64,000 bases of DNA, from contig CAWGVG010000026.1 in assembly GCA_963825865.1 (NCBI GenBank), positions 128,001 through 192,000 of the forward strand, in the 5' to 3' direction. Position numbers and translations under genes: made by a program. This stretch comes from an uncultured Nitrososphaeraceae archaeon (GTDB lineage Archaea; Thermoproteota; Nitrososphaeria; Nitrososphaerales; Nitrososphaeraceae). Within the stretch, counting starts at the first letter, position 1. Every line of letters starts with the position of its first letter. Of the stretch, positions 44-21,780 are shown piece after piece. A model generated the notes under the pieces. The model was not told where the DNA came from, did no database searches, and worked only from the letters and a program-made list of their open reading frames with translations.

Positions 44-285
44 ATTGTCCGGCTAGCCGAAAGAGATGAAAATCCGTCATTCAGATCTGCATAGTAGGTA
101 AAGGCCTGCTATGTTTAAAGAAATGATGTGTTGGCATCATATGAACTATAGGTATTCTGCTAGTCTGAGAGATTTAGCAAATAGTCCAATCGTGTGGTGT
201 TAAGGGCAAACCACAAGGCTGCGTGGAACCTGTGGGCTCAGTCTTGAATGGAAAGCCACATGTCTTCGAGTCTTAGTCGGATAAT
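44..285 (+). ncRNA. Putative large structured ncRNA, copy 1 (unknown family)
   Basis: 13-bp terminal stem (44-56/273-285) and several internal hairpins. Shares motifs GCCGAAAGAGA, AAGGG(C/A)AAACCACA(A/T)GGCTGC and AAGCCACATGTCTTCGAG with 21168-21402. No ORF. Confidence 0.75.
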
Positions 286-1594: not shown

Positions 1595-2409
1595 CGTTTC
1601 AACATATATTTCAATTTCAAATTCAAAAATATGAGATGGCTGCACTTCATGTTTTACACAAATCCCATAGCGCTTGTTAAAAAATCCATCAGTAATCAAT
1701 AAAGGCTTTTTCAGCAAACAATGCATCTATTCCTTTAATAGGATATGGAGAAGCAGTTGTATGGTTTATTTTTTCCTCGAGCGGTATCATTTATCACTAT
1801 AGAACCAAAAGAAAAAGTACCCGCAAGCCCATTGCTATCAAAACAGCGCCAATAGCATTGGAATTTTTGATTTCTTGCTATAATGCAAGAATGCAAGCAT
1901 AATACCAGCAAAAGGTCGTTTATCTTTTTCTTCCATGACATAATAGCGGTAAATATCCTAATTAACGGCAGTTACAATAGCTCCTTGCTCTTGATGTCTC
2001 ATCATATCTACTTTAAACTGTTTGATTATGTATAATTTCTGTAGATGCTTGGTAGAATAAGAATTAGAAGAGGCTTAAGAAGATCCTCTGTTCATTTAAT
2101 AACTGGAGCAGGATTCATAACACGATGGTTCATCGATGATGAAAGAAACATTGCACATTTTGACTGAAATGAGTGGATCAATTATAACAAGTGTTACTAA
2201 TGATTAGTAAAATTAATAAGCAAAACGCAGATGAAGGATCGCATAAGACCATAGAAGATTAAATTTATAGAATAGAGAATCAGTTTTCGAATAACTACCT
2301 ACGAAGCCTATATTCTGTAATCAGACTGTGAGACGTTCCATATGATGTATAGAGGTTCTCCAGAGATGATTCTCCAGTTAAATTATAACTATGATGGTTG
2401 ACGGATTGG

Positions 2410-3019
2410 CTAGCCTACATAGTCTAATGTGGAACCTCTCTTTGAATGTTCCATTTTTTTAATTTCTTGGAATAATTTGTAAAGATCATTTTGCAATACA
2501 GATCGTAAATTCCTATTATAAATTGCAAGCGGCAGGATGAATAGTTAGAAAGTATTTTTGACCATTTTTCTTTACAATTTTTCCTCGATTTGTAGTAATT
2601 GATTTTCCCCCAAGAATTGAGGAATATGCGGTAGCTCCCAAAATGCAAATGATTTCTGGTGCAATAAGAGAAATTTGTCTATCTAGATAAGGTCTGCATG
2701 CTATGCGTTCATCATCGTCAGGTACCCTGTTAGCAGGTGGTCGACATTTTACAACGTTAGTTATAAATATAAGAGATCTTTGTATTCCTGCTTTTTCTAA
2801 TGCTTCATTTAAAATCTGTCCTGCAGCCCCTACAAACGGCTTTCCCTCATCATCTTCATTTTTACCCGGTGCTTCTCCGATAAACATTAATTTTGCGGAC
2901 AGTTGTCCTTCTCCAGGTACCGCATTTTTTCTACTTCGTGAGAGTTTACAAAGTGGGCAGCCAATGACTTCTGTTGCAATTTTCTCTAACGAGTCGTTTG
3001 GAACATTACGAGTGGCCAT
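2410..3019 (-). CDS. udg: Family 4 uracil-DNA glycosylase (Fe-S), frameshift near C-terminus
   Basis: CPLC, GEAPG, KCRPP.NR and HPAA motifs; shifted frame continues IYNRNLRSVLQNDL to stop at 2410. Confidence 0.9.
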
Positions 3020-4101: not shown

Positions 4102-5911
4102 ATGGCTATATATGTCAAACCAAAAATTGGATCTTGGAACTTGAGTGACCTTATTAAAGATCCAGCAGGAAATGAATTTCAAGAATTTTTAGAATCTCTT
4201 GAAGAAGATGTAAGGCAACTTGAAAATAAGCGCAAAGACCTTCATGATAATCTTTCGCCAGTAGATTTTGAAAGTATACTCCACTCAATTGAGAAGATAT
4301 CAGAAAATGTCAATATAGCTGGAGGTTATGCTCATTTAAGATATTCAGCTGATACATCCTCCAATGAGGCGGCTGCCCTTGTAACAAAAATGGAAATTTT
4401 AGCATCAGATATAGCCAATAGGTTACTCTTCGTTGATTTATGGTTCAAAAAAGAAATAGATGAAATAAATGCACAACGTTTGATAGAGTCGGTACCTTCT
4501 GACTATAGAGAATATCTTAAACATAAGAGATTACTCGCAAACCACACTTTAACTGAGCCTGAAGAGAAGATCATCAGTACTCTAGAAGTTACTGGAACAA
4601 GTGCCCTTGTCAAGATCTATGATAGAATGACAAGCGGTTTTGAATATGTAGTGACTATTAAAAAAGGTAAGAGAGTAATCAAGAAAATATTTTCCAATAA
4701 AGAAAAGATGCTTTCGCTTATACGTAGCACAAAACCTGAGGAAAGAGAAGCTGCATACATGTCGCTTTTGGAGGTGTACAAAAAAAATAGCGGAGTATTG
4801 GGCGAAATATATCAGAACCTCGTAATTCAATGGCGAGATGAACAAATATCCATGCGTAGATTCAAATCGCCAATTTCTGTTCGAAATCTTTCCAATAACT
4901 TGGACGATGCAACAGTAGAAACACTGCTTTCTGTATGTAGAAGAAACGCGATAGTTTTCCAAGATTATTTTAAAGAAAAAGCAAAGATGCTTGATGTTAA
5001 AAAACTCCAGAGATATCATCTATATGCTCCTTTATCGTTAAAAACATCTGATCAAAAAAAATTTGCTTATACTAAAGCGGCGGATATTGTCCTCAAAACA
5101 TTTGATGATTTCGATCCATTATTCAGAGAATTTGCTGAACGAGTCTTTAATGAACAACATGTGGATTCTGAAATTAGAAATAATAAACAAGGGGGAGCTT
5201 TTTGTTCAACAATATCGCCTAAAAGAACTCCATATGTTTTATTAAATTTTGATGGTAAGTCTAGAGACGTCTCTACAATGGCGCATGAGTTTGGTCATGC
5301 TATACACAGTATGGCAGCTTCCGATAAACCGATAACTGTATTTCATGCCCATCTTCCATTAGCAGAGACTGCGTCAGTATTTGCAGAAATGCTTTTGCAT
5401 GACAAGTTGTCTAAAAGAATTACAAGAAAAGAGCGCAAGATACTACTGGCGGAACAAATAGACGATATGTATGCTACAATAATGCGACAGGCATACTTTA
5501 CTCTCTTTGAAATAAATGCACATCATGCAATTGCAGACCAGAATGCAACAATAGACAAAGTTTCTCAACTGTATCTAAATAATTTGAATGAGCAGTTTGG
5601 TAATTCAGTAATTATCTCTCCAAATTTTCAATGGGAATGGGTTTATATTCCACATTTTTACCATACCCCATTCTATTGCTATGCATATTCATTTGGAAAC
5701 TTGCTAGTATTGTCATTATACCAGCAGTTTAAGATGGAAGGAAAAAAATCTTTTATCTCAAAATATTTTAAAATACTCTCATCTGGAGGTTCACGAAAAC
5801 CTGAAGAGTTGCTTAAGGAAGCGGGAGTTGATATTTCAAAAGATGAATTCTGGCAACGAGGGTTTGAATTTAGTTGCAAATAAAATACAAGAGTTAAAAG
5901 AGATGAATTAG
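4102..5911 (+). CDS. pepF: M3 family oligoendopeptidase F
   Basis: HEFGH zinc motif, AETAS and HFYHTPFYCYAY; terminal frameshift extends to stop at 5911. Confidence 0.9.
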
Positions 5912-6018: not shown

Positions 6019-7369
6019 TCAAGAGGGAACTATTCTATATATGGTTCCACTATATGTAAGAACATATAGATATCCATCATCAGGCCCAACTTGTATATCT
6101 GTAATAACGCCAAATCCACTTCCAAATACATTATTATCTTGAAGTTCATCTGGGGTATTTGCAACCTTATCTGAAAGCAGGCCAGTAAGATCTAATCCTG
6201 TTCTCTCCTGGTCTAATTTAAAATTGAATAGATTGCCGGTGTTGACGTCTCCTACAAACATACTATTTTCATATTGTTTGCCCAATTTATCAGAATTAAG
6301 GAACTTGAGTGCGGTAGGGCCATCAGTTTGTAGCCATGTAAACTCTGGAGATTTGTATTTGGCTTTGTTTCCAAAGTCTACCAGGTTATCAGGAGATTGA
6401 AAAATAGGTCCAGGGGACCCTCCACGAGCTTGCCACAGGCCCTGCACCTGCTGCCACCCACTATTGAATCCCGGTTCTACAAGGTTAATTTCATCCCCAT
6501 AAGTTGCTCCATTTTCTGTATCCCACAGTTTACCAGTTGCAGGATCAAAGTCCATACCAAAACTGTTGCGTATTCCATAAGCATAGTATTTATTTAAAAT
6601 GGGGTCTTCATCATTACCCAGGGGGCTATTTGGTACTACTGCATCACCATCCTGTGTAACTCTAAGAATACCACTTGTACCATCAAGGGGGGTTCCATCT
6701 TTTACATTTTGGGCTTGACCTTTGTGACCTCCAACGTCGCCAATACCAACATACACGTTGCTATCCGGACCAATCACGACTTTGCCGCCAACGTGATTAT
6801 TTTCAGCAGGAGGAGATGGATCAGGTGAAGTCGCTGGAAGGATTAAAAGTAATTTCGGGTTGATAAGCTGGTTATCTACCAGTTCGTATCGGTAAAGATG
6901 GTTAACCATGGATTGTGTATTATTTTCTTCCGTTACTCCGCTACCTTCTCCACCATTATTACTCTCAGGCTCAGTATAATACAAGAATACATAGGTAACA
7001 GGACGTTCATGTGATTTTTCATTCTTCGCAACAGCAATTCCTAGCATACCCCATTCTACTTGCTCTCCAACATTCACATGAAGTAGAGGCTGAGGGAGCA
7101 TTTGTCCATTTACAATTCTCTGTACTGTACCAGAATCTTTCTGTAAAACCAGAATATCGTTAGTACCCTAAAAATGCCATGCTTGTAGCGAGTCGAAGTC
7201 CTGTAAAGACCACCTCTGCTTTTAGATTGGGATCATTGATAGTTGGGCCTTGAGCAGATGGGATAGCCTTGGTATAAGCAGCATAAGCAAAATAATTTCC
7301 AGCTTGTATAAAAGAAGTCATGACGAGTGTTGTAACAATTAGAATCAATGTAGAATGTAAGAACAGCAC
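6019..7369 (-). CDS. PQQ-dependent glucose/sorbosone dehydrogenase family protein (frameshift near 7160)
   Basis: Signal peptide; NHVGG, YGIRNSFGMDFDP and ENG...DEIN motifs. Confidence 0.85.
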
Positions 7370-7554
7370 GCATATTATCTTCGTAGCCTTACCTATTTAT
7401 AATATTCGCAACATTAGTATCTATAATGCTTACTAATTATAATCCTATTAATAAATTAGAATGTTATTATAGTAGCATACAAGAGTTTTTCTTCTCACAA
7501 TCAAGCATAGTTTCATTACATTTAACTGGTTATAATTTCCTAGCGTATTAGAGA

Positions 7555-8224
7555 TTACTGGCCTTTTTGGAATATTTTTACACATTGTGGAGGACATACA
7601 TTTTCACAGGCCATGCAGAATATACAATCTTTTTCTCTAATCATAAATGGTTTCTTTTCCGATGCTGGATGTCCCGGTGTATCTAACCACTCATATACAT
7701 TTACTGGACAGGCTTCAATGCATGCACCATCTGCTACACATATGTCAAAATCTACACATACTTCTGTACCCCATATACCTAACTGACCCGGTGGATTTAT
7801 TGGACCCCATACTTTTATGTCCTTAAAGGTGCCTGTTACCTGCCTCTTTGACTTGAAATTTTGATCAATAGGACCATCAACCTTTGAATAATCGGTACCA
7901 GTTCCAGTAAGAGAAATAGTTGTATTATCGCCACTACCGCTACTACCACTACTGGCACCTGCCGCAAGTGAGGGAGCAGCCGGTTGCGCTCGCAACAGCT
8001 GGAGGGGAAGGAGCTGTCGCAATTGATGTTGTGACGGATGGTTTTTGAACCGATGCCGCTTGTTTTGGTGTAGCCGGGACAGCCTGCGCAGCCATTGATT
8101 TCTGTCTTGTGACTATACATAATTGTTTATGAACATCCTTCATACTTTCGAGTGTATTTTGATTACTATGTAGCAGAAGACATCCACAATCTTGGCAAAC
8201 ATATTCATTTAAAGTTGAAGACAT
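7555..8224 (-). CDS. Zfx-type dicluster ferredoxin with N-terminal CxxC/HxxxC domain and Ala/Pro/Ser linker (frameshift near 7980)
   Basis: [31 protein letters not shown] and [12 protein letters not shown] motifs. Confidence 0.85.
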
Positions 8225-8618
8225 AAGATATTATTAACATCCAGTTATTTATCAATTTTTTGTATAAAAAATGCTGTTTCGAGCAAGTATAAATGCCCTA
8301 ACATACAATGAGATTCTGTTTAGAGAAGAAATTATATGATATATTAATAATGTACACAAATTGACAAAATGCCGCTGATGATATCTATCATTGAAAAACA
8401 TTGCAATTCCTTATCTAGGAGAAAAGCTGACTCGAAAGAAAGAGTGGTTGAAATTATTAGAGGAAATCCTCTAAAAAATCAGCACTTAATATTTAGAATC
8501 AAGACACCAAGATTGTTTGTATTTATGGCTAATAATACTGATAATAAATTTAAAGACAATACAATTAACAAAAAGGTCCTCGTATAATAATCGACTCTTA
8601 CAACTTGGTGGTTAAAAC

Positions 8619-9320
8619 TTGTCAGGCCTGGGTCTGAGATACTGGTGGGAAGTAATAGAAGTGCTACGCCTCGTAATTCCAGTTTACGATAAAGTAAACA
8701 ATGCAATTTCTTTAGGTAAGGATTCCCAATTTCGTCTGCATGGCATTCAGGGCCGTATTTTTTCTGGTAACACGATACTAGATGCCGGTTCCGGTTATGG
8801 AAATATGTCTCGTGTTGCGCTGGGCGAAGCAAAAGGTGACGCGAAGATCATCATGTACGATCCAATACCAGAGATGCTTGCCAATATAAATAAACTTTTT
8901 GGGTCTAACGTACCAGGATATCTATCCTCCGGAGTTTTTGAATATATGCCATTTCAACAGAACACTTTCGACGTTGTAATGTGTGGTTATTCACTGCGTG
9001 ATGCAATTGAACTTAAGCAAGCAATTGCAGAAATGCATAGGGTGTTAAAACAAGGAGGAAGATTAATTATTGTTGATCTTGGCAAGCCAGATAACCTTGT
9101 TCTTAGAGCATTTGTTTCATTTTACTTAAGGTATATACTCGGAATAGTTGCTTTTATGGTGGCGGGAAAAGTAGGACTACAATTCAAAACACTTTACGGC
9201 ACTTACAGGAGATGGCCAAAAAACTCTGGTCTTTATACACTGCTCAATGAAAAATTTTCGAAGGTAGTATTTCACAAAATGATGATGGGTGGCGCCATTA
9301 TTGTTGTCGCATATAAATAG
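8619..9320 (+). CDS. UbiE/MenG-like class I SAM methyltransferase
   Basis: YDKVN..ISLG, LDAGSGYG and EMHRVLK.GG motifs. Confidence 0.85.
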   Translation: MSGLGLRYWWEVIEVLRLVIPVYDKVNNAISLGKDSQFRLHGIQGRIFSGNTILDAGSGYGNMSRVALGEAKGDAKIIMYDPIPEMLANINKLFGSNVPGYLSSGVFEYMPFQQNTFDVVMCGYSLRDAIELKQAIAEMHRVLKQGGRLIIVDLGKPDNLVLRAFVSFYLRYILGIVAFMVAGKVGLQFKTLYGTYRRWPKNSGLYTLLNEKFSKVVFHKMMMGGAIIVVAYK

Positions 9321-9676
9321 CATTACAACTAAAAGAAATTGGCTAGTAGGGGCAGTTAGTTGGTATCGTCAAATCCTAAAGATAGGATATTTTCGATGTA
9401 CTTATAAAAAAAGGATGCTCCTTCGCGCCTGGCAGCTGACAAAAGAGATGCGGCTATATTTAGGAGCTAGAGAAATCAGTAATAAACCCATTTTGTATAT
9501 ATATCTATATATATTATATGTGGATAATTTAAAAATCGATAGGCTAAGAGAAAGCATCACTCCCCAACAAATCGCGCCTTACAATCTTGCACTTATTACA
9601 ATATTGACAAAAGATAATTCAATACTCAAAATATTTTGTCAGTCACAAACTTAAGGATTTTCCAAACAATCAAAGA

Positions 9677-9952
9677 ATGAATTGGTTCAAAGATAGTAAC
9701 GGACACATTTTAGAATCTAAAAACAGGATGCATAGGCTGTTGTATTGTCCACTATGTCAAAAACTAATATTCAAAGCAAACTGTCAAAAATTAAGGCAAG
9801 ACAAACGGGGAAATCTCTATAAAGTCAAACGTTATCATTATGATAAATTATCCAAGCTAGAACGTGCAGAAATTAAAGAACAAAGAGAAGGAAAAAGATT
9901 GCAGGAATTACCCAGTATTGAATTGAGCAAAATAATAAGGCATATTCTTTAA
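9677..9952 (+). CDS. Small basic hypothetical protein with CxxC
   Basis: 91-aa ORF containing YCPLCQK. Confidence 0.55.
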   Translation: MNWFKDSNGHILESKNRMHRLLYCPLCQKLIFKANCQKLRQDKRGNLYKVKRYHYDKLSKLERAEIKEQREGKRLQELPSIELSKIIRHIL

Positions 9953-10229
9953 AGCACATCTGTCTGTCTTTCTATCTATATCTATTTTCTTACACAATAA
10001 AGTATGAATGAAGTTTGCATGTATGATATCCTTTAAGCGATTACACTAATTAAAATAATATTTTATCTGTTTACCTAATAGAGAACAAAAAAATAGTAGA
10101 GAATAGTTTTAGCAAAGGACGCTATCTGATTCAAAATAAAGCAATGTTGGGTAAAAGAATGTGCTTTTTTTATGGACAAGCTATTTAGTATATATTTGGT
10201 TGATGTAATGACATTGACTAGGTAAAAGG

Positions 10230-11159
10230 ATCACGACTGATATTCTTAATGTTGAGCTACATTGTCATAATATTTTTTCTAATTATCGGAACGGATCATC
10301 CCGTATTCCATTTGACTGTGGTGTCAGTATAGAAGAGCAATTAGAGATGGCTTTGAAGAGAAAAATTGATGTGCTATTCGTCACCAATCATAATACTCTC
10401 GATGGTTACCGGCAGGTGCTTGACTATCAAAAGGACCATTACAAATTAAGGAACATCAAAATTTACCCGGCGGAAGAAATTACGATAGATAACCAAGGCC
10501 ATGTCCTTGCATATGGTATTACTGAACAAATAAAATCTGGAATGACGCTCGAAGAGACTTTGGATGAGATAAAATGTCAAAATGCTATTTCTTGTGCAGC
10601 TCACCCATTTGCAGTTACTAATGGCATACGCGAAATGGCATCAAAGTGTAATATGATAGAGTCATTTAACAGCAACAATGTCGATCTTTTTTCAAACGTT
10701 GTAGCAGAAATTTTTGCAAAATATAATAATATACCAACGGTTGCAGGTAGCGATTCCCATATTGTACCAACCATTGGTAGATGTATTAACACTATCGAGT
10801 CAGAATGTAGCCTCGATTCAATTTTGCAAAGTATGCGTCGTGGTAAAGTTAGGATTGCTAGCGCAAATTATGCCTCAAAAGATGAGCTTTATCAACATGC
10901 ACACTACATACTCTCTAATTCTAAAGATTTACTCCTTTGCTACGCTTTGGAGCATCACCCGCGAGCTTATTGGGCTCTAAAATGGGCTCTGAACTCTTAT
11001 TCAACAAATCCTTATAGAAGATTTTGGAAAGCCCTTGGAACATTCACACTATACCTGACAAAAAGAGCTTCTGAAAAGGTCAATGTCAAAGGCTACAATC
11101 CACATGTTTTTGAACAAAGATCTTGGCGGACATTAATTTCCATGAGCCTTGTTCCGTAG
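10230..11159 (+). CDS. PHP domain metal-dependent phosphoesterase
   Basis: In-frame upstream extension contains ELHCHN (HxH motif); also TNHN, AHPF and GSDSH. Confidence 0.85.
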   Translation: MTTDILNVELHCHNIFSNYRNGSSRIPFDCGVSIEEQLEMALKRKIDVLFVTNHNTLDGYRQVLDYQKDHYKLRNIKIYPAEEITIDNQGHVLAYGITEQIKSGMTLEETLDEIKCQNAISCAAHPFAVTNGIREMASKCNMIESFNSNNVDLFSNVVAEIFAKYNNIPTVAGSDSHIVPTIGRCINTIESECSLDSILQSMRRGKVRIASANYASKDELYQHAHYILSNSKDLLLCYALEHHPRAYWALKWALNSYSTNPYRRFWKALGTFTLYLTKRASEKVNVKGYNPHVFEQRSWRTLISMSLVP

Positions 11160-11310
11160 GTTTTCTACTTGTTTAATCCTATTCCTTCTATCATGGAAAA
11201 GCCATTTTGTCACTAAAATTATTCCAAAAATCGGAAAACTTGCTATAAATAAGTACGGAAAAATAGCAACGTATATCGAAGGATCAAATATGCTCACTAG
11301 TAATCAACAC

Positions 11311-11553
11311 CTAAACAATTTCTGCTGTAGCGAAAGTGCTTCCTATCTGTGTTATCTTGACCCTGACGCTCTGTCCTACTTGTCCATTCTTTACAAAGAC
11401 TACAAATCCTTGTATCCTTGCAATACCGTCTCCTTTTCTACTGATTTCTGTAATCTGTACCTCATATTCTTTCCCTGTTTCAACAGGTTTTGGATCGGAA
11501 TCTCTATTTAGACTACCAGTCCTTCTTTGTTCATAACTCATATATAAGTTCAA
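11311..11553 (-). CDS. TRAM domain RNA-binding (cold-shock-like) protein
   Basis: PKPVETGKEYEVQITEISRKGDGIARIQGFVVFV. Confidence 0.9.
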   Translation of the reverse strand: MNLYMSYEQRRTGSLNRDSDPKPVETGKEYEVQITEISRKGDGIARIQGFVVFVKNGQVGQSVRVKITQIGSTFATAEIV

Positions 11554-11894
11554 AAATGTTGGCTGGTCATTCCCAATATAAACTCTGAATAATTTTGATT
11601 ATTATTATTATTAGTCGCTGCTTTATAAGTTATATATACATGCGCAAGTATATGATGATGATGGCGACTTATTTGACTCACTCTCTCTCTTAATGCTCAT
11701 TAATAAATGAATAGGAAAACAGGAAGTTCCAGTTATTGTTATAATATATGAGCTCTTTAAGATAAAAGCGACATTGTGTTGCTGTAGTAATTAAATGACT
11801 AATAAATACTTGTAAATAATTTAAACTAAAAAACTAAGAATAAAATTGAAATTTGAAGTACAGAAGCATTATAGACAAACATTATAGTCTACAG

Positions 11895-12383
11895 GGGGGT
11901 GTTCGATGGCAACACCGAACGATCAAGAACGTCGCCTCGCACAAGCGCGACTGGTAGTAACCGTGGGGTTCTTGAGGAATCATTCAAAACTACAAAGGTT
12001 GTGATGGACAGACGAACGTTCGACGTTGGAGAGGGAGATAACCATCAATTTCACGTGTCATGTTTTTGTACTTTTCTCATGATGTTTGAGAAAAGGCGGC
12101 GGCCAAGGGAAAAACGACGTTTACCTTTGTCACCGACGGTATCGAAAGTGCCCTTAAACAAACAAAAGCAGCCGCAGGTGACAAAAATGTCATTATGATG
12201 GGCGGCGCGAATACCGCTCAGCAGTATATAAAGGCTAGACTTGAATACAGATTCACCTCGCGCCCGTATTACTCGATGGGGGCATCGGATTGTTAGAGCA
12301 TATAGGCAATGAGCACTTTGGACGGGAAAGAACTAGGGTGATAGAGTCCCCTGGTGTAACATATCTTAGATTCGCTTCGTAAG
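11895..12383 (+). pseudogene. Dihydrofolate reductase / RibD C-terminal family remnant
   Basis: Multi-frame translation gives TFTFVTDGIESALKQ..AAAGDKNV, MGGANTAQQY, IQIHLAPVLLDGG and VIESPGVTYLRF; locally higher GC; no start. Confidence 0.75.
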
Positions 12384-12562
12384 TAAGATACATAAAAGGA
12401 AGTTGCCACCAAAGAAAAGATTGCAGACATACCATGACATGATTCGATCTGCCTCAAGGTTAACCAGAGCGTCCTCTAGGCTATTATCGTAGTGGTGGAT
12501 GTCACGCGAAAACTTGCATTATCTTAATGGACTAACAGGGGATGCAATCTATACCTATGGTA

Positions 12563-12709
12563 TGGTGCGGGAGGTGGGATTTGAACCCACGAATCCCTAA
12601 GGAACAGGGTTATAGGAGCCCTTTTTTATTTTCCTGACTCATTCTAAGCTTCGCACTCTATTTCTATAATCAGAGACCTGCGCCGTTGGCCAGGCTTGGC
12701 AACCCCCGC
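12563..12709 (-). tRNA. tRNA-Leu (anticodon read as TAG) with two introns and encoded CCA
   Basis: Reverse complement GCGGGGGTTGCCAAGCCTGGCCAACGGCGCAGG[27-nt intron]GCTTAGA[32-nt intron]ACCCTG, long variable arm, GGTTCAAATCCCACCTCCCGCACCA. Confidence 0.9.
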
Positions 12710-13330
12710 AAGTTATCATTCTGCATAATCAATAGCCAAATTTATCTTTATAAACAAACAGTCAGGAAGCCTTCAATAACATACACAATAACATAGCTGA
12801 AAGATATACGAAAGTTTTTGTCGAGCTATTTCGAAATAGAAATGGGATAGCCGGGGTATACGAACGAAGTAGAAATAATAATAATAATAATGATGCAGTA
12901 GATTTATGACTTTTCAATATTCATGATTATGTATAGAGTTATCGAAATGGAATATAATAAATACTCATTACAATGTTCATTGTTTGACAAAATGCTATTC
13001 AAATCAGACACAGTAAGAGCGCACATTTTTCCATATTGTCATTATTATTCCGCAAAGATAAGAAAGTACAGAAGAATAGACGATGGCTATAGTGCCATCA
13101 CAATAATCGCCCATGAAAGTTTTAAAAGATCTGTTTATGTATTTACAATCTATCTTCGGAATATTGGGAAGTTAAGCCTATGAATATAATGAAAGTAAAA
13201 GTTACAAACTATATTCACAGCAGTAGTAGTAGTGGCAGAATGTTGTTGTTTTCACTTGCCAACATCCAACCTTGTCTGAGGGCATGTATTTCTGCTCTTC
13301 CTATTTTTCACTCAAGATAATGTAGATAAA

Positions 13331-16154: not shown

Positions 16155-17962
16155 GTGAAGCTCCGCCAACCAGTCGTAGTAGTTTTGGGTCATGTAGACT
16201 CTGGAAAAACTTCTTTATTGGATAGAATACGGGGCACTGCTGTCCAAGCACGTGAAGCTGGAGGAATCACACAACATATTGGAGCAAGCTTTTTTCCAAT
16301 TGAAACGATTAAGGACATTACCGGGACGCTTTATCAGAAACTTTCTAGATCTGAAACTCAAATACCTGGTTTGCTTGTTATTGATACTCCTGGTCATGAA
16401 GTCTTTGCCAATCTAAGAATACGAGGGGGCTCAGCAGCAGATATTGCAATTCTAGTTGTGGATGCAAATAAGGGGTTTGAGGCTCAGACAGTTGAAAGCA
16501 TAGAGATTCTAAGGAAAAGAAAGGTACCATTTGTTATTGCGCTAAACAAAGTAGACATGATTAGCGGCTGGCGAAAAAAAATCAATAACAACAATAACAA
16601 CATGCGTTTTATTAGTGCTCAACTTGCGACACAAGATATCAGTATCCAGGAAATACTGGACGAAAAAATCTACAATGTGGTGGGTTCTCTTTCAAGATCA
16701 GGTTATAATTCTGAAGCATATTGGCGCGTCAAAGATTTTACCAAAGAAGTAGCAATTGTGCCTGTGAGTGCTGCTACAGGAGTGGGAATTCCTGAATTGC
16801 TCGCGGTACTTGTTGGGCTGGCACAGCAATATTTGATAAAGAAATTAGAGACGGCATAATGGGTTTACAAGAGGAATTGTACTTGAAATCAACGAAGAAG
16901 TAGGTCTAGGGCCATCTGCCAACATTATACTTTTGGATGGAGTCTTAAAACACGGCGACAACATAGTAGTAGCAAAAAGAGACTCTGCCATTGTTACCAA
17001 AATTAAGGCATTGTTACTTCCAAAGCCCCTTGATGAGATGAGAGATCCAAGAGACAAATTCAAGCCAGTGAGTGAAGTAATAGCGAGCAGCAGGTCTAAA
17101 GATAACATCACCTGACTTGACTGGCGTTCTGGCAGGCAGCCCTTTATATGTGGTAGAAAATAAAGAAGATGAAGATAGGTTAAAACCACTAGTAGAGTCT
17201 GAAATTAAGAGTGCAATTATAAATAATACCGATTCAAATGGAGTTATTCTAAGGTGTGATACTATAGGCTCAATTGAAGCAATCATGGACCTTTTGAAAA
17301 AATCAAATATTCCAGTACAGAGTGCAGATATTGGGCAGATTACAAGGAGAGATGTAATAGCAGCTTCTGCAGTCAAGGAAAAGGACAGATATTTGGGAGT
17401 CATATTAGGTTTTAATGCAAAGGTTTTGGATGATGCACAGAAAGAATCACAAGAACGTGGAGTAATGATTTTCAATGAGCAAATAATTTATAATCTTGTC
17501 CGAACTTACACAGATTGGGTCACATATCAGAGGGAACATGAAGAATCAATTCTATTCAATGAAATACCTCCTGTCTGTAAATTTCAGTTTATGAAAGGGT
17601 TTATCTTCAGACGTAATGATCCTGCAGTATTTGGAGCAGAAATTCTAGTTGGAAAACTTCGACAAAAAGTTCTCGTTATGAACGAAGAGGGTAGAAAGAT
17701 TGGTGTTATACACCAAGTTCAGGAAAATGGTAAAGCAATACAAGAAGCCAGTAAAGGAATGCAAGTTGCAGTATCTATCAAAGAGCCCGTTGTCGGAAGA
17801 CAAATCAGCGAAGGGGATATTTTCTATACTGATGTGAACAGTAAACAGGCAAAAATGTTATTAGAAAGATTCAATCATCGGTTAAACGAAGAGGAAAAAG
17901 AAGTTTTCAACAAAATCCTTTTTCTGAAAAGAAAATCCGATTCCGCATACGGATATTTTTAA
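16155..17962 (+). CDS. infB: Translation initiation factor aIF5B/IF-2 (two apparent frameshifts)
   Basis: GHVDSGKT, GGITQHIGA, DTPGH and NKVD; C-terminal domains in 16933.. and 17117..17962; conserved synteny after ndk. Confidence 0.95.
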
Positions 17963-18571: not shown

Positions 18572-19036
18572 TTAAAGGTCTAACAAAAATCTAGTAATGA
18601 CTTTATTTCTTTCTTGTATGATTTCCATTTCGTGATAAGTTACTGCTTTAATCTCTACTTTGTAATGGTGTTTTTTGAGATTGAGATACTCTCCCTTAGC
18701 AATTCCTGAAAGAAAATAACTATTGTCGTTGTTATTATTATTCTGATATATTTTGACTTTGAAAACTGAAATTAGGATATTCTCAACCAAAAGCGTTAGC
18801 AGAACTTTCTCTAACCAATCGTAAAGTAGACTTTTAAGGTCGTATCCCTTTGCTTGTATATTGATTTCTTGATTAGGCGAAACTCGCTCTATGTCAAACA
18901 TTGTGTTAACAAGGCCACAAGCTGAATTTTCAAAAGCCTCATCTAATGTGCAACCATATGCCTCTATAACAGCATCTGTCAGATGATCAAGGTATCGGAA
19001 TCGTCGATGAACTGATGACATATTTGTATGATTCAA
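18572..19036 (-). CDS. Archease
   Basis: YLDHLTD and EIKAVTYH motifs. Confidence 0.92.
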   Translation of the reverse strand: MNHTNMSSVHRRFRYLDHLTDAVIEAYGCTLDEAFENSACGLVNTMFDIERVSPNQEINIQAKGYDLKSLLYDWLEKVLLTLLVENILISVFKVKIYQNNNNNDNSYFLSGIAKGEYLNLKKHHYKVEIKAVTYHEMEIIQERNKVITRFLLDL

Positions 19037-19108
19037 AACTAACTAATTCAGTTTATTATATAATTGATCGTAAAATCTAAATGTCAACATCTACTGATTT
19101 CAAATGAA

Positions 19109-20416
19109 ATGATGAAATTAGAACTTCCTCGTGGAATGAGAGACCTTGCACCAGAAGAGTTCTATAACATTAATTATATTGAAGAAAAATTCCTTGAAAC
19201 GACATCCTTGTTTAACTTCAAATTTATGGAGCCGTCACCACTTGAGACTGCTCTGCTACTCTGGAGACAAAGAGTGGTGCATCTATTTCAAATGAAATAT
19301 ATAGTTTTATCGATAGGGGCTCCAGGAGCGTTGCATTAAGATTTGATCTTACAATTGGTTTAACAAGATTTGTAGGCAGCAAGAAGGGATTTGAAGATGC
19401 CAGTCAAAGTTGGAGCGTTCGCTGGTGTTTGGAGATATGACGAACCGCAGGCTGGACGATATCGATATTTTCATCAATGGGACGTAGAAGTTTATGGTTC
19501 ATTTAGTCAAGAGTCTGATGCTGAGGTAATTGAATTTATTTCGGTATTTTTCAAAAAGCTTGGGCTAGATGTAATCATTGAAATAAACGACAGACAACTA
19601 ATGGAAGAATATGTAAGGAACAGACTTGGTGTTTCAGATGAGCAAATGATCCTAGAAATGTTCAGAGCGGTCGACAAGGTCCAAAAAAAAGGTGCAAAAG
19701 GAGTTTATGAGGAATATAAGGATAAAATTGGGTCTTCAAAGCTACAAGCTCTAATAGATATATCGATGGTTAAGGGGAATATCGATGAAGTATTTAATTC
19801 AAAAAGAGATCTAATAGAGCTTGCAAATTGGAGTAAACTTGCAGGATTAATGGATTCATTAAAATCAAGAGGAGTCTATAATGCTCGAGTTAACCTTGGC
19901 ATTGTACGTGGACTGGACTATTATTCTGGAGTCGTGTTTGAGGCATTTGATCCCTCTTTACTTGATTCAGGTGCTCTGGTAGGTGGTGGCAGATACGATA
20001 GGTTAACTGATGCTTTTGGAAGAAAAGATATTGGCGCAACAGGTGCTGCTGGAGGAGTTGAAAGGATAGTGGGAGCCTTGCAAACCCATGGAATTTTAAA
20101 ATCAACGCCAAAGCCTATAATTTACGTTGCATATACATCGACTAATGCAAGTAAGGAGGCTATAGTAATAGCCTCTAATTTACGCAAGAGCGGAGTTATT
20201 ACTGACTATGACCTTCAAGGTAGGTCACTGGGAAAGCAACTACAAGATGCAAGCACAAAGGGTGCGCTATTAACAGTGATAGTGGCACCAGATGAAATTA
20301 AAAACGGACAGGTAACGCTTCGGTCAATGAAGGATGGTATTGAAAGTAAACAGAATGTAGAGGATCTAGCACGAGATCTGAACAGGATGATACCACCGCT
20401 GCTGCGACGTGATTAG
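19109..20416 (+). CDS. hisS: Histidine--tRNA ligase (frameshifts in 5' part)
   Basis: LPRGMRD, RYDEPQAGRYRYFHQ, VRGLDYY and GGGRYD. Confidence 0.95.
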
Positions 20417-21167
20417 ATAGAGAACCTGTTACCATAACACGAGCACTTTTCGTTTTTATAATCGCATTTCATCTTTTTTTATCATAAACATAAATTTCTA
20501 ATTACAACTTCTGGAGGGTGCGAAGCTCCCAAATCAACGATACTCATTTTTGCCTTCAATTTGAAACGGATTGCACTCCATAGATATGTTTGAGAGTGCG
20601 AACTGGCGCTCGATGAAGACCTGTTATATATATATCAAATCCACCTTTTGAACTAAAGAAGAAGAGTTGATTGAATTCATTTCTTTATTTTATCTAAATG
20701 CTGCATATAGTCATTATCAAAGGAAATCTTGTAGGTCATCTTACTCTATATTGAGATCATATTATTTCATTTATGAATCATGCATCATGGTTAAATCTCT
20801 ATAAATGATACAGTTTGAAACAATTTCTAAAAAAAAGAGCATTTTCTAACTCAAAAAGATATAAGGTTACATATATGATTTGTAAATATTATGAATTACT
20901 ATAAGTAAAAAATACAAAGAACAGATTGTGATAAATTCATTGCAGAAGATGGGGCTTCCTCAAATAGAGGAATTGAAGCATATTTTGTATTAGATGGAAG
21001 AAATGTGCGGTAGCGTTTTGTCAATATAATTAGAAGATGTTTATCACAAATTTGCTATGGGAGCTGCAATAACCTATTATTGCTTATGACGTCGTCAATT
21101 ATATTCAATCTTATTTATTAATTGGTTTGACAGAAAGACATAAACTCTGCAATGCATCTGTATTTAC

Positions 21168-21402
21168 TATCCGATTGGCCGAAAGAGAAGAACGATCCAC
21201 CAATTTGCGCAAGGCTGCAAGTTTAGGCTTGTAGTCTCTTCAGAAATGGTGTTTATCGTGATATGCCGTAGGTTAACTACAGCTTCACCTGTAGGGAGTA
21301 CATGCATATATAAAGCGATAAGGGAAAACCACATGGCTGCCTCGTAGCCTATTGAAGTAGCTGTGCAAGGGAAGCCACATGTCTTCGAGAGCTGGTCGGA
21401 TA
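21168..21402 (+). ncRNA. Putative large structured ncRNA, copy 2 (unknown family)
   Basis: 12-bp terminal stem (21168-21179/21391-21402); same motif order and helices as 44-285 with compensatory changes. Confidence 0.75.
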
Positions 21403-21599
21403 TTATGATTAATACTGTTCTTAAACTGAATAGGAAATAAAGGCTGACGATATATTCGAATTACTCCAGGAAAGAGACATTATCCAAAAAAAACCTTAAG
21501 TTATGTACGCATTTAATTACAAAAGTACCCGAAAATTGAGGTGCCCATTGCTATTGTAATTCACATAGACTATACGATTAATATTGCGATCTCGTGAAA

Positions 21600-21780
21600 A
21601 CATGGGACATGGTATTGATGTGCTAGAAGTCGCGACTGGTCTCAAAGTCGCATTAATAAATAGTGGACTTACTATCGAATCCCATACTTAATTTTGGACC
21701 TGTAGAAATTGCCTCGATAGTTGGAATAGATGTCTATGTAGCAAAAATTATCTCTTATGTAAAGTTTAAATTGGCATAAA
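21600..21780 (+). pseudogene. Remnant of small helix-hairpin-helix-like hypothetical protein
   Basis: Broken frame IDVLEVATGLKVALINSGLTIES...EIASIVGIDVYVAKII. Confidence 0.4.

Follow-up and report, generated by a model that had tools for sequence, protein, structure and literature searches.

The 64,000-nucleotide (nt) window considered here, i.e., the whole stretch of DNA that was analysed, belongs to contig CAWGVG010000026.1 of an uncultured Nitrososphaeraceae archaeon (GCA_963825865.1) and carries two copies of a structured RNA element. Copy 2, the main subject, is located at positions 21164–21408 on the + strand, downstream of genes for L7Ae, NDK, aIF5B, thioredoxin, archease and HisRS and upstream of a convergent ABC-2 transporter gene; it is matched by a covariance model trained on 18 homologues (R1) with 185.7 bits over model positions 1–251. 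Copy 1, a paralogous precursor, is found at positions 42–289 (+, R1 229 bits) and is 62% identical to copy 2 over 244 columns, and a third full-length copy is present on another contig of the same genome (G000:C4:556-810). The initial annotation of the window, made from its letters, had taken the element for a multi-copy RNA and had suggested a genome-wide count. In the available genome (4.98 Mb, 82% complete) R1 gives six matches: three strong ones with 260.9, 229 and 185.7 bits, copy 2 being the lowest, two degenerate ones and one fragment at a contig end. The three low-scoring matches (Table 1) are likely decayed copies or in part spurious. Taken as a whole, the segment is in all likelihood an independent non-coding RNA gene, a member of an archaeal family whose product appears to be excised at a bulge-helix-bulge (BHB) signal and to be circular.

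A structured RNA with compensatory changes was proposed for positions 21168–21402 from the comparison of the two window copies, and this is borne out by a larger set of homologues. Among 64 model-aligned homologues (61 distinct), standard pairs make up 92.8% of the 3,771 pair cells of a structure of 63 pairs, and 49 of these pairs are changed on both sides. Shuffled controls, also suggested at the outset, give 81.4 ± 0.3% pairing and on average 33.6 pairs with both-sided changes, and none of 500 shuffles reaches either observed value; sliding the partners by 1–3 columns leaves 34.7–41.7% paired. The alignment was fitted to the model and therefore favours the structure, but the result stays robust in the light of the controls with slid partners and of how many pair types occur. 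RNAalifold, applied to 18 sequences, returns 58 pairs, 40 of them with compensatory changes, and single-sequence folding of copy 2 beats its shuffles only modestly (z −2.69, 1 of 200 shuffles equally good). There are 513 G-U cells as opposed to 95 A-C cells, an excess that identifies the + strand as the RNA, and 92.6% of cells are paired on this strand vs. 81.9% on the opposite one. Six of the seven helices listed in the initial annotation are part of the covariation-supported consensus: the terminal stem (21168–21179/21391–21402), CACC(A)ATTT/AAATGGTG, GGCTGCAAG/CTTGTAGTC, TTATCG/CGATAA, ATATGC/GCATAT and CTACAG/CTGTAG. The seventh, TGGCT/AGCCA, is absent from it, as AGCCA sits in an invariant block (AAAGCCACAU) and the partner of GGCUGC is GUAGCUGU.

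The consensus fold of the circle consists of four helical domains around a central junction, together with a pseudoknot between an internal loop of P3 (AUAGGU) and the apical loop of P4 (ACCUAU). The pseudoknot (helix 7) was proposed by no folding program; it is paired in 91.8% of cells and four of its six pairs are changed on both sides (U-A to C-G or A-U, G-C to A-U). The core is nearly invariant (GGGC-N-AAC ... GAAAGCCACAU). The two base strands of P4, at window positions 21323–21338 and 21369–21384, are near-repeats of each other (GGAAAACCACATGGCT and GGGAAGCCACATGTCT, 81% identical), which lends the invariant core a pseudo-symmetric look. In copy 2 the apical loop of P2 (window 21222–21227) has UUAG where nearly all homologues have AAAG; the subtype to which copy 2 belongs is common to copies in G007, G016, G056, G061, G067 and G078 and has the pseudoknot strands GUAGGUU and AGCCUAU.

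In the available text of PMC4090602 the archaeal BHB motif is described as a helix of 4 base pairs (bp) between two 3-nt bulges. The terminal stem of the element runs on into the 5′ block CCGAAAGAG and the 3′ block CUUCGAG, and stem and blocks together are a canonical archaeal BHB splicing signal, which the initial annotation had missed along with the circularity of the mature RNA. From the outside in, the signal comprises an outer helix of 10–11 bp, a 3-nt bulge in the 3′ strand, a central 4-bp helix (CGAA/UUCG), a 3-nt bulge in the 5′ strand and a short inner helix, and the exact 3-4-3 core is present in 56 of the 61 distinct sequences. The outer helix (helix 1) is 94.2% paired with all ten pairs changed on both sides, and 97.5% of the cells of the central helix (helix 2) are paired. 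In the second pair of this helix, G-C (37 sequences) alternates with A-U (20), and a change confined to one side is never seen. Similarly, a set of 28 diverse sequences from several families has six types of central helix, with four of four pairs formed in 27. The inner helix, two pairs of invariant type that are 90.2% paired, is too uniform for covariation. Cleavage of a canonical BHB falls after the second nucleotide of each bulge.

The product of this signal was observed in a relative from the same family, G094, whose single-contig genome has a single copy of the gene at L202:6001-6247. Three raw-read rRNA-depleted RNA sequencing runs (X21–X23) and the contigs of X13, from another study, were mapped on L202:5400-6900. 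Depth was 6,590–12,950 over L202:6012-6215, 25–100 times the level of the flanks, for which two runs gave a depth of 0 and the third one of no more than 283. The first mates fell on the − strand by about 50–100 to 1, the pattern that + strand RNA gives in most stranded libraries. The dominant joint is a back-splice from 6226 to 6021 (i.e., it goes back 206 positions), seen in 6,761, 5,885 and 11,139 reads of the three raw-read runs, or 33–60% of the mapped reads, and it is also contained in an X13 contig with a depth of 7,401. The joint is ambiguous by four letters (AAAG), which fit on either side, so that the true cut is 0–4 places further on; the canonical BHB cut corresponds to an offset of +2 and gives a circle of 206 nt (6023–6228). 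No leader-trailer joint was found among the joints in the G094 runs, and leader and trailer were barely covered. The orthologous RNA of G094 is thus a circle of about 206 nt, cleaved and joined at the position predicted from the BHB.

Circularisation creates a structure of its own. Once the circle is closed, the 3′ strand of the central helix that it keeps has lost its discarded 5′ partner; this strand and the bases that precede it pair with the first five bases (UCUUC/GAAGA), and the loop of four nt spans the joint and includes the last G of the central helix and the third nucleotide of the 5′ bulge. The predicted loop is of GNRA type (GAGA or GAAA) in 57 of 59 sequences and in 27 of the 28 sequences of the diverse set, while the stem covaries (UCUUC/GAAGA, CUCCU/AGGAG, GUCCC/GGGGC, UCGCC/GGUGA), and this covariation spans the class Nitrososphaeria. 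Of the bulge nucleotides, those that end up in the circle are conserved (A, R, A) and the discarded ones vary (G/A/C/U at position 2 of the 5′ bulge, A/U/C at position 3 of the 3′ bulge). Cuts after the second bulge nucleotide, and in no other register, are in keeping with this pattern, which also argues that selection acts on the circular form.

It is conceivable that the circle is a by-product or a decay intermediate and that the functional species is the linear structured RNA or the ligated leader-trailer hairpin. Archaeal circular 5S rRNA and some RNAs internal to open reading frames (ORFs) are, in the part of the source at hand, interpreted as degradation or processing intermediates (PMC3326292), and circular pre-rRNAs are intermediates according to the literature consulted. 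For the present RNA such an origin is improbable. First, in the flanks of the linear precursor the depth is about 17 in one run and 0 in the other two, vs. 6,600–12,900 inside. Second, a large part of the reads carry the joint and the leader-trailer joint was not seen. Third, the hairpin and GNRA loop that depend on ligation are conserved and covarying, and all conserved structure of the covariation-supported consensus falls inside the circle.

The biogenesis of an excised, circularised and refolded RNA is well supported, and its steps would be as follows. The promoter-like box would drive a precursor of about 245 nt, the ends of which would pair into the canonical archaeal BHB. EndA would cut both bulges and RtcB would ligate the ends of the excised piece, yielding a circle of about 204–207 nt, with a short leader and trailer thrown away. 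The freed 3′ strand of the central helix would then re-pair with the first bases of the circle into a 5-bp hairpin with a GNRA tetraloop (GAGA/GAAA) over the joint. The window's own genome encodes RtcB and two genes with an EndA domain, and these are the presumed processing enzymes, as deduced from the genes present in the genome.

Table 1. Positions of features of copies 1 and 2, of weaker matches to R1 and of neighbouring or associated genes (window coordinates unless a contig or locus is given; G000 is the genome of the window).
Feature	Position	Strand	Remarks
Promoter-like A/T-rich box (AAAGACATAAACT)	21134-21146	+	Centred ~28 nt upstream of the copy 2 outer helix
Outer helix, 5′ strand (ATCCGATTGGC)	21169-21179	+	11 bp with 21391-21401, three of them G-U; predicted to be discarded from the mature RNA
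Outer helix, 3′ strand (GCTGGTCGGAT)	21391-21401	+	Predicted to be discarded from the mature RNA
Central helix, 5′ strand CGAA	21180-21183	+	Helix 2
Central helix, 3′ strand UUCG	21384-21387	+	Predicted to be kept in the circle, as part of the junction hairpin UCUUC-GAGA-GAAGA
5′ bulge AGA	21184-21186	+	Predicted cut after 21185, from the joint of the orthologue and the conserved bulge positions
3′ bulge AGA	21388-21390	+	Predicted cut after 21389
Mature circle of copy 2 (predicted)	21186-21389	+	204 nt, by homology to the G094 circle
P2	21198-21251	+	Long hairpin with internal loop and a conserved tetraloop at the apex (UUAG in copy 2, mostly AAAG in homologues); helices 3-5
P3	21253-21321	+	Long hairpin with variable apical stem CTACAG/CTGTAG; helices 6 and 8
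Pseudoknot, 5′ strand GUAGGU (P3 internal loop)	21268-21273	+	Pairs with 21347-21352
Pseudoknot, 3′ strand GCCUAU (P4 apical loop)	21347-21352	+	Helix 7
P4, with the family's most conserved core (GGGNAAAC-C ... GRAAGCCACAU)	21322-21380	+	Invariant columns in 29 sequences from several families; pattern scan
BHB of copy 1	outer 47-57/272-282, central 58-61/265-268, bulges 62-64 and 269-271	+	BHB parse
Mature circle of copy 1 (predicted)	64-270	+	207 nt, by homology to the G094 circle
Degenerate match	G000:C29:77232-77458	+	R1 49.9 bits; intact BHB missing
Degenerate match	G000:C41:1669-1935	-	R1 44.1 bits; intact BHB missing; overlaps a short-chain dehydrogenase ORF
Truncated match	G000:C17:1-47	+	R1 26.6 bits
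c0, ~218 amino acids, highly conserved	G000:C25:2466-3233 (locus L292)	+	Homologues at L237:2260-2943, L238:3300-3956 and others
Split ORF pairs (aIF5B, SsuA/NMT1-like, HisRS and 3-hydroxyacyl-CoA dehydrogenase)	16155-16859 + 17117-17962; 365-715 + 678-1493; 19064-19339 + 19391-20416; L292:1320-1874 + 1849-2475		Adjacent ORFs

The flanks of the gene are consistent with a transcription unit of its own. Among 57 distinct upstream flanks an A/T-rich, TATA-like box is seen by eye at about −30, and T-rich stretches, likewise read by eye, follow the outer helix. The box upstream of copy 2 may accordingly represent an archaeal B recognition element (BRE)/TATA element, and the family as a whole appears, from these boxes and T-rich tails, to be transcribed independently. 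Homology between copies extends only about 40–70 nt upstream and about 10 nt downstream.

A selfish, intron-like or mobile RNA element spreading in the genome would account for the copy number of 1–13, for the many copies found at contig ends in draft assemblies and for same-genome copies that are in some cases 96–99% identical. The initial annotation had likewise raised a link to a reverse transcriptase or TnpB and the search for target-site duplications. Neither was substantiated: Pfam domains of transposases, integrases, reverse transcriptases, homing endonucleases or TnpB occur in none of the 27 ORFs that flank 15 multi-copy loci, those of the cognate nucleases, recombinases or reverse transcriptases beside or within which transposon-associated guide RNAs (TnpB/IscB omega RNA, IS110 bridge RNA) and retron RNA are encoded occur neither in these nor in the 17 window ORFs scanned, and no direct repeats bracket copy 2. 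HEARO and related Rfam models have no match in the window or at the element, and a viral origin finds no footing in nine viral contigs with an 18-nt motif of the element, none of which matches R1. Furthermore, each copy has its own promoter-like upstream 40–70 nt, no gene is interrupted, most genomes, including three single-contig genomes, have a single copy, and several families keep the RNA within a conserved block of housekeeping genes. Mobility is hence, on balance, quite improbable as an explanation, slightly more so than the by-product origin discussed above.

The same neighbourhoods bear on the idea that the element acts in cis, as a riboswitch or raiA-like regulator, or is a DNA repeat, i.e., a miniature inverted-repeat transposable element (MITE). 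A terminal inverted repeat, an intergenic position and a likeness to raiA noted in the initial annotation speak for it. That annotation had itself considered a cis riboswitch unlikely, rightly so, as both window copies are convergent with the downstream gene, and no universal neighbour was found across 18 family loci, the neighbours varying by lineage. The resemblance to raiA did not hold up in Rfam (see below), the excess of G-U over A-C pairs is unexpected for a DNA repeat, and the orthologue is a discrete and very abundant RNA. A cis element or MITE is the least probable of the alternatives considered and can hardly be entertained.

Some further observations on the neighbourhoods may be mentioned. 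About 2.1 kb upstream of copy 2 there is the archease gene (window 18572–19036, −; Pfam PF01951, E 4.6e-39). The RtcB ligase uses archease as a cofactor; the proximity of the gene is probably a coincidence, as no such adjacency is seen at other loci. Four housekeeping genes, for aIF5B, an SsuA/NMT1-like binding protein, HisRS and 3-hydroxyacyl-CoA dehydrogenase, each appear to be split into adjacent ORFs (Table 1), which suggests assembly frameshift errors or pseudogenes. Structured-RNA genes cluster in three other genomes: in G141 the circular-RNA gene (L239:3001-3248, +) lies between an intron-sized tRNA match (2616–2715, −) and the gene for signal recognition particle (SRP) RNA (4122–4431, −), and in G014 and G085 it is about 4 kb from the RNase P RNA.

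The RNA does not correspond to a described family. Rfam 15 at gathering score gives no match in the whole 64-kb window; at E ≤ 10 over positions 20900–21700 there are two matches, both outside the element, and at E ≤ 1 no match overlaps the element at five homologous loci. This includes raiA, which we take to be one of the 4,227 Rfam models. Upstream of copy 2 the JUMPstart model has a weak match at window positions 20976–21017 (+; 17.9 bits vs. a gathering score of 35, E 0.48), probably by chance. Several candidate identities were rejected: RNase P RNA and SRP RNA because full-length matches to both occur elsewhere in the genome, a tRNA host because ARAGORN finds no tRNA in the window, and box C/D, H/ACA and k-turn readings because, on inspection of the alignment, the motifs in question are part of strands of covarying helices or are without the GA pairs required.

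A known RNA could also escape linear Rfam models if its gene were circularly permuted, and there is a precedent in a permuted SRP RNA gene that, according to the available part of the report, becomes functional through BHB circularisation (PMC4731332). Here, the canonical RNase P and SRP RNAs are encoded in full length elsewhere, permissive Rfam scans that allow partial matches were empty over the element at six loci (on unrotated sequences), and the helices are nested as they stand in the gene, whose ends close the structure. A permuted known RNA is thus very improbable. No account of the RNA was found in the full-text literature, with supplementary files and subscription-only papers outside the coverage. 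As far as found, the processing pathway is already known, whereas a dedicated gene family with a BHB-made, highly structured circular RNA as its sole product is apparently undescribed.

The family is old within the class Nitrososphaeria but patchy, and it is rare in f13, the largest family searched. R1 matches 60 of 121 genomes of Nitrososphaeraceae (counts that include the unpublished G050 and G092), with mostly single copies but 4–13 in genus g18 and 1–7 in genus g17, and it has no match in genera g2 (0/14), g5 (0/14), g13 (0/13) and g6 (0/2). At the order level 16 of 41 genomes are matched, from families f4, f6, f7, f9, f10, f12 and f18. At the class level a strict core pattern occurs in 45 of 401 genomes, including one match in another order (f24), and its reversed control in none. 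Full-length R1 matches of 36–74 bits with the same BHB and junction hairpin were obtained at 13 loci taken from the core-pattern matches. In f13 the core pattern is found in 8 of 223 genomes, all of genus g56 (three of the eight unpublished); R2, a 76-position model of the core with only five base pairs, detects the RNA in 2 of 150 f13 genomes, and R1 in none of 39 at E ≤ 0.01. Among the matches listed, the public records with the RNA are labelled Nitrososphaeraceae archaeon, Candidatus Nitrosopolaris and Candidatus Nitrososphaera, and the many bacterial matches of the 18-nt motif are chance-like; three of the latter (L049, L112, L118) were checked and do not match R1.

What the circle does is a matter for conjecture. 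The best guess, tentative and held at somewhat less than even confidence, is that it is a trans-acting structural RNA, resistant to nucleases and bound by protein, i.e., the scaffold or cofactor of a ribonucleoprotein (RNP). This is suggested by its abundance, its exonuclease-proof topology, the invariant core, the pseudoknot, the GNRA loop and the presence of mostly one copy per genome. That the circle is itself catalytic, or a decoy, is possible but ranks below a scaffold in likelihood.

One candidate partner is c0, a protein with the invariant motifs CD..KGD..IVEIETGF.PPE and KINHS that has no Pfam or NCBIfam match; its 5,427 homologues are labelled "hypothetical protein" or, by one source, "integrase". 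Its predicted structure (predicted local distance difference test 88.9, predicted template modelling score 0.86) has a core that resembles a PD-(D/E)xK nuclease, with VIA-align Z-scores of 9.3 (3dnx_A, root-mean-square deviation 2.7, 105 residues aligned), 9.0 (2okf_B), 8.1 (1y88_A) and 6.9 (NucS, 2vld_B), a best Foldseek E-value of just 2.2e-3, invariant D81 and E94-x-E96 residues, and the canonical PD-(D/E)xK lysine out of place. The gene is common in the class and often located beside the circular-RNA gene or near the RNase P RNA. It lies 0–2 genes from the RNA, in variable orientation, in 14 of 19 loci of f4, f6, f7, f9 and f10, and one gene from it in G014 and G085 of family f1. In f1 it is missing from the genera that lack the RNA (g2 0/15, g5 0/16, g13 0/8, g6 0/2), and among the 64 f1 genomes covered by both scans 20 have c0 and the RNA, five c0 only, one the RNA only and 38 neither, counts that come from related and thus non-independent genomes. 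Similarly, the same six genomes of f10 and the same single genome of f24 carry both. On the other hand c0 is present in 150 of 223 f13 genomes, in which the RNA is nearly never found, and no RNA was detected near c0 in seven f13 loci. Both genes belong to a conserved block with 3-hydroxyacyl-CoA dehydrogenase, a SLOG protein, a phosphoribosyltransferase, a Tsr3-like gene and the RNase P RNA, so that old synteny or linkage alone could explain their adjacency and joint loss. The case for c0 as a partner is accordingly weak. It is rather unlikely, yet conceivable, that the circle serves as RNA subunit in a Nitrososphaeria-specific RNP with c0, acting as an RNA-scaffolded or RNA-directed nuclease or as a new catalytic RNA with an active site formed by GGGC-N-AAC and GAAAGCCACAU.

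Several points weigh against a BHB-made circular RNA with a structural role. With respect to the signal, the inner BHB helix has just 2 bp, the second of which is unpaired in 11 of 61 sequences, a mismatch adjoins a bulge in some lineages (C-C beside the 3′ bulge in the outer helix of copy 1, C-A in the L174 group), and genus g56 has a C-A mismatch within the central helix. The cut after the second bulge nucleotide is assumed from the general rule for BHB substrates, PMC4090602 being cited here for the sizes of helix and bulges. With respect to the product, circularity was seen in one species (G094), in short-read libraries with neither RNase R treatment nor a DNA control, and the 4-nt microhomology at the joint leaves some formal room for a template-switch artefact of the reverse transcriptase. 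Such an artefact is disfavoured by the proportion of reads that carry the joint and by its position exactly at the BHB. The circle of copy 2, like expression in the window's organism, is extrapolated from G094, and given its UUAG tetraloop and the lowest of the strong scores, copy 2 could be a drifting paralogue. Finally, in the genomes searched, and with the models R1 and R2 and the core pattern, no match to the RNA came from 61 of 121 family genomes or from 148 of 150 f13 genomes. Absence from so many relatives means that the RNA is not essential and is awkward for a core housekeeping role, and the scaffold proposed above is a conjecture.

The gene proposed here has several relatives in mechanism, as far as the portions of the cited papers at hand describe them. 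The circularly permuted SRP RNA of Thermoproteus (PMC4731332) is likewise the product of a stand-alone gene for neither tRNA nor rRNA, cut at a BHB, ligated and functional as a circle. It is a rearranged member of a universal family, whereas here the canonical SRP RNA is encoded separately, the gene order is unpermuted and the RNA belongs to no known family. Archaeal tRNA introns, such as the tRNA-Trp intron, a circular box C/D guide RNA (PMC12558985, PMC3326292), also yield functional pieces by BHB excision and circularisation. In contrast to these, the window contains no tRNA, a leader this short could not hold a tRNA half and the "exons" are discarded flanks of about 20 nt; the circle, of about 205 nt, has four helical domains, a pseudoknot and no C/D boxes. 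Circular pre-16S and pre-23S rRNA and circular 23S rRNA (PMC7038931, PMC12918454, 10.64898/2026.03.23.713588) share the BHB-bearing processing stem, the cleavage and the ligation, but they are ribosomal, whereas the present RNA has a promoter-like box of its own, is limited to part of the class and is multi-copy in some genomes. Metazoan tRNA intronic circular RNAs (tricRNAs) are similarly abundant and stable circles made by the tRNA splicing machinery, but they are eukaryotic and hosted in tRNA genes, and the abstract mentions no comparable conserved higher-order structure (PMC4536317).

Orphan large structured RNAs such as raiA, OLE, ROOL and GOLLD are bacterial and linear. They have in common with the present family an elaborate covarying fold, independent genes and a biochemical role that is unassigned, and none of them matches here by Rfam.

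Ammonia oxidisers of this class rank with the most numerous archaea in soil and hot springs, and their non-coding RNAs are scarcely explored. If the present interpretation is correct, a circular, intricately folded RNA with no match in Rfam would be among the most abundant non-ribosomal transcripts of a relative of the window's organism. The tRNA-splicing machinery would then have a dedicated client that is neither tRNA nor rRNA, with flanking "exons" made only to be discarded, and the final fold, with a GNRA hairpin over the joint, would be possible only after ligation. Should the circle prove to be catalytic or the RNA subunit of an RNP with c0, this would be the first dedicated archaeal gene family with a BHB-made circular functional RNA as its only product. 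More generally, the family would provide a natural and compact design for stable circular RNAs and an entry to an unexplored part of archaeal RNA biology.

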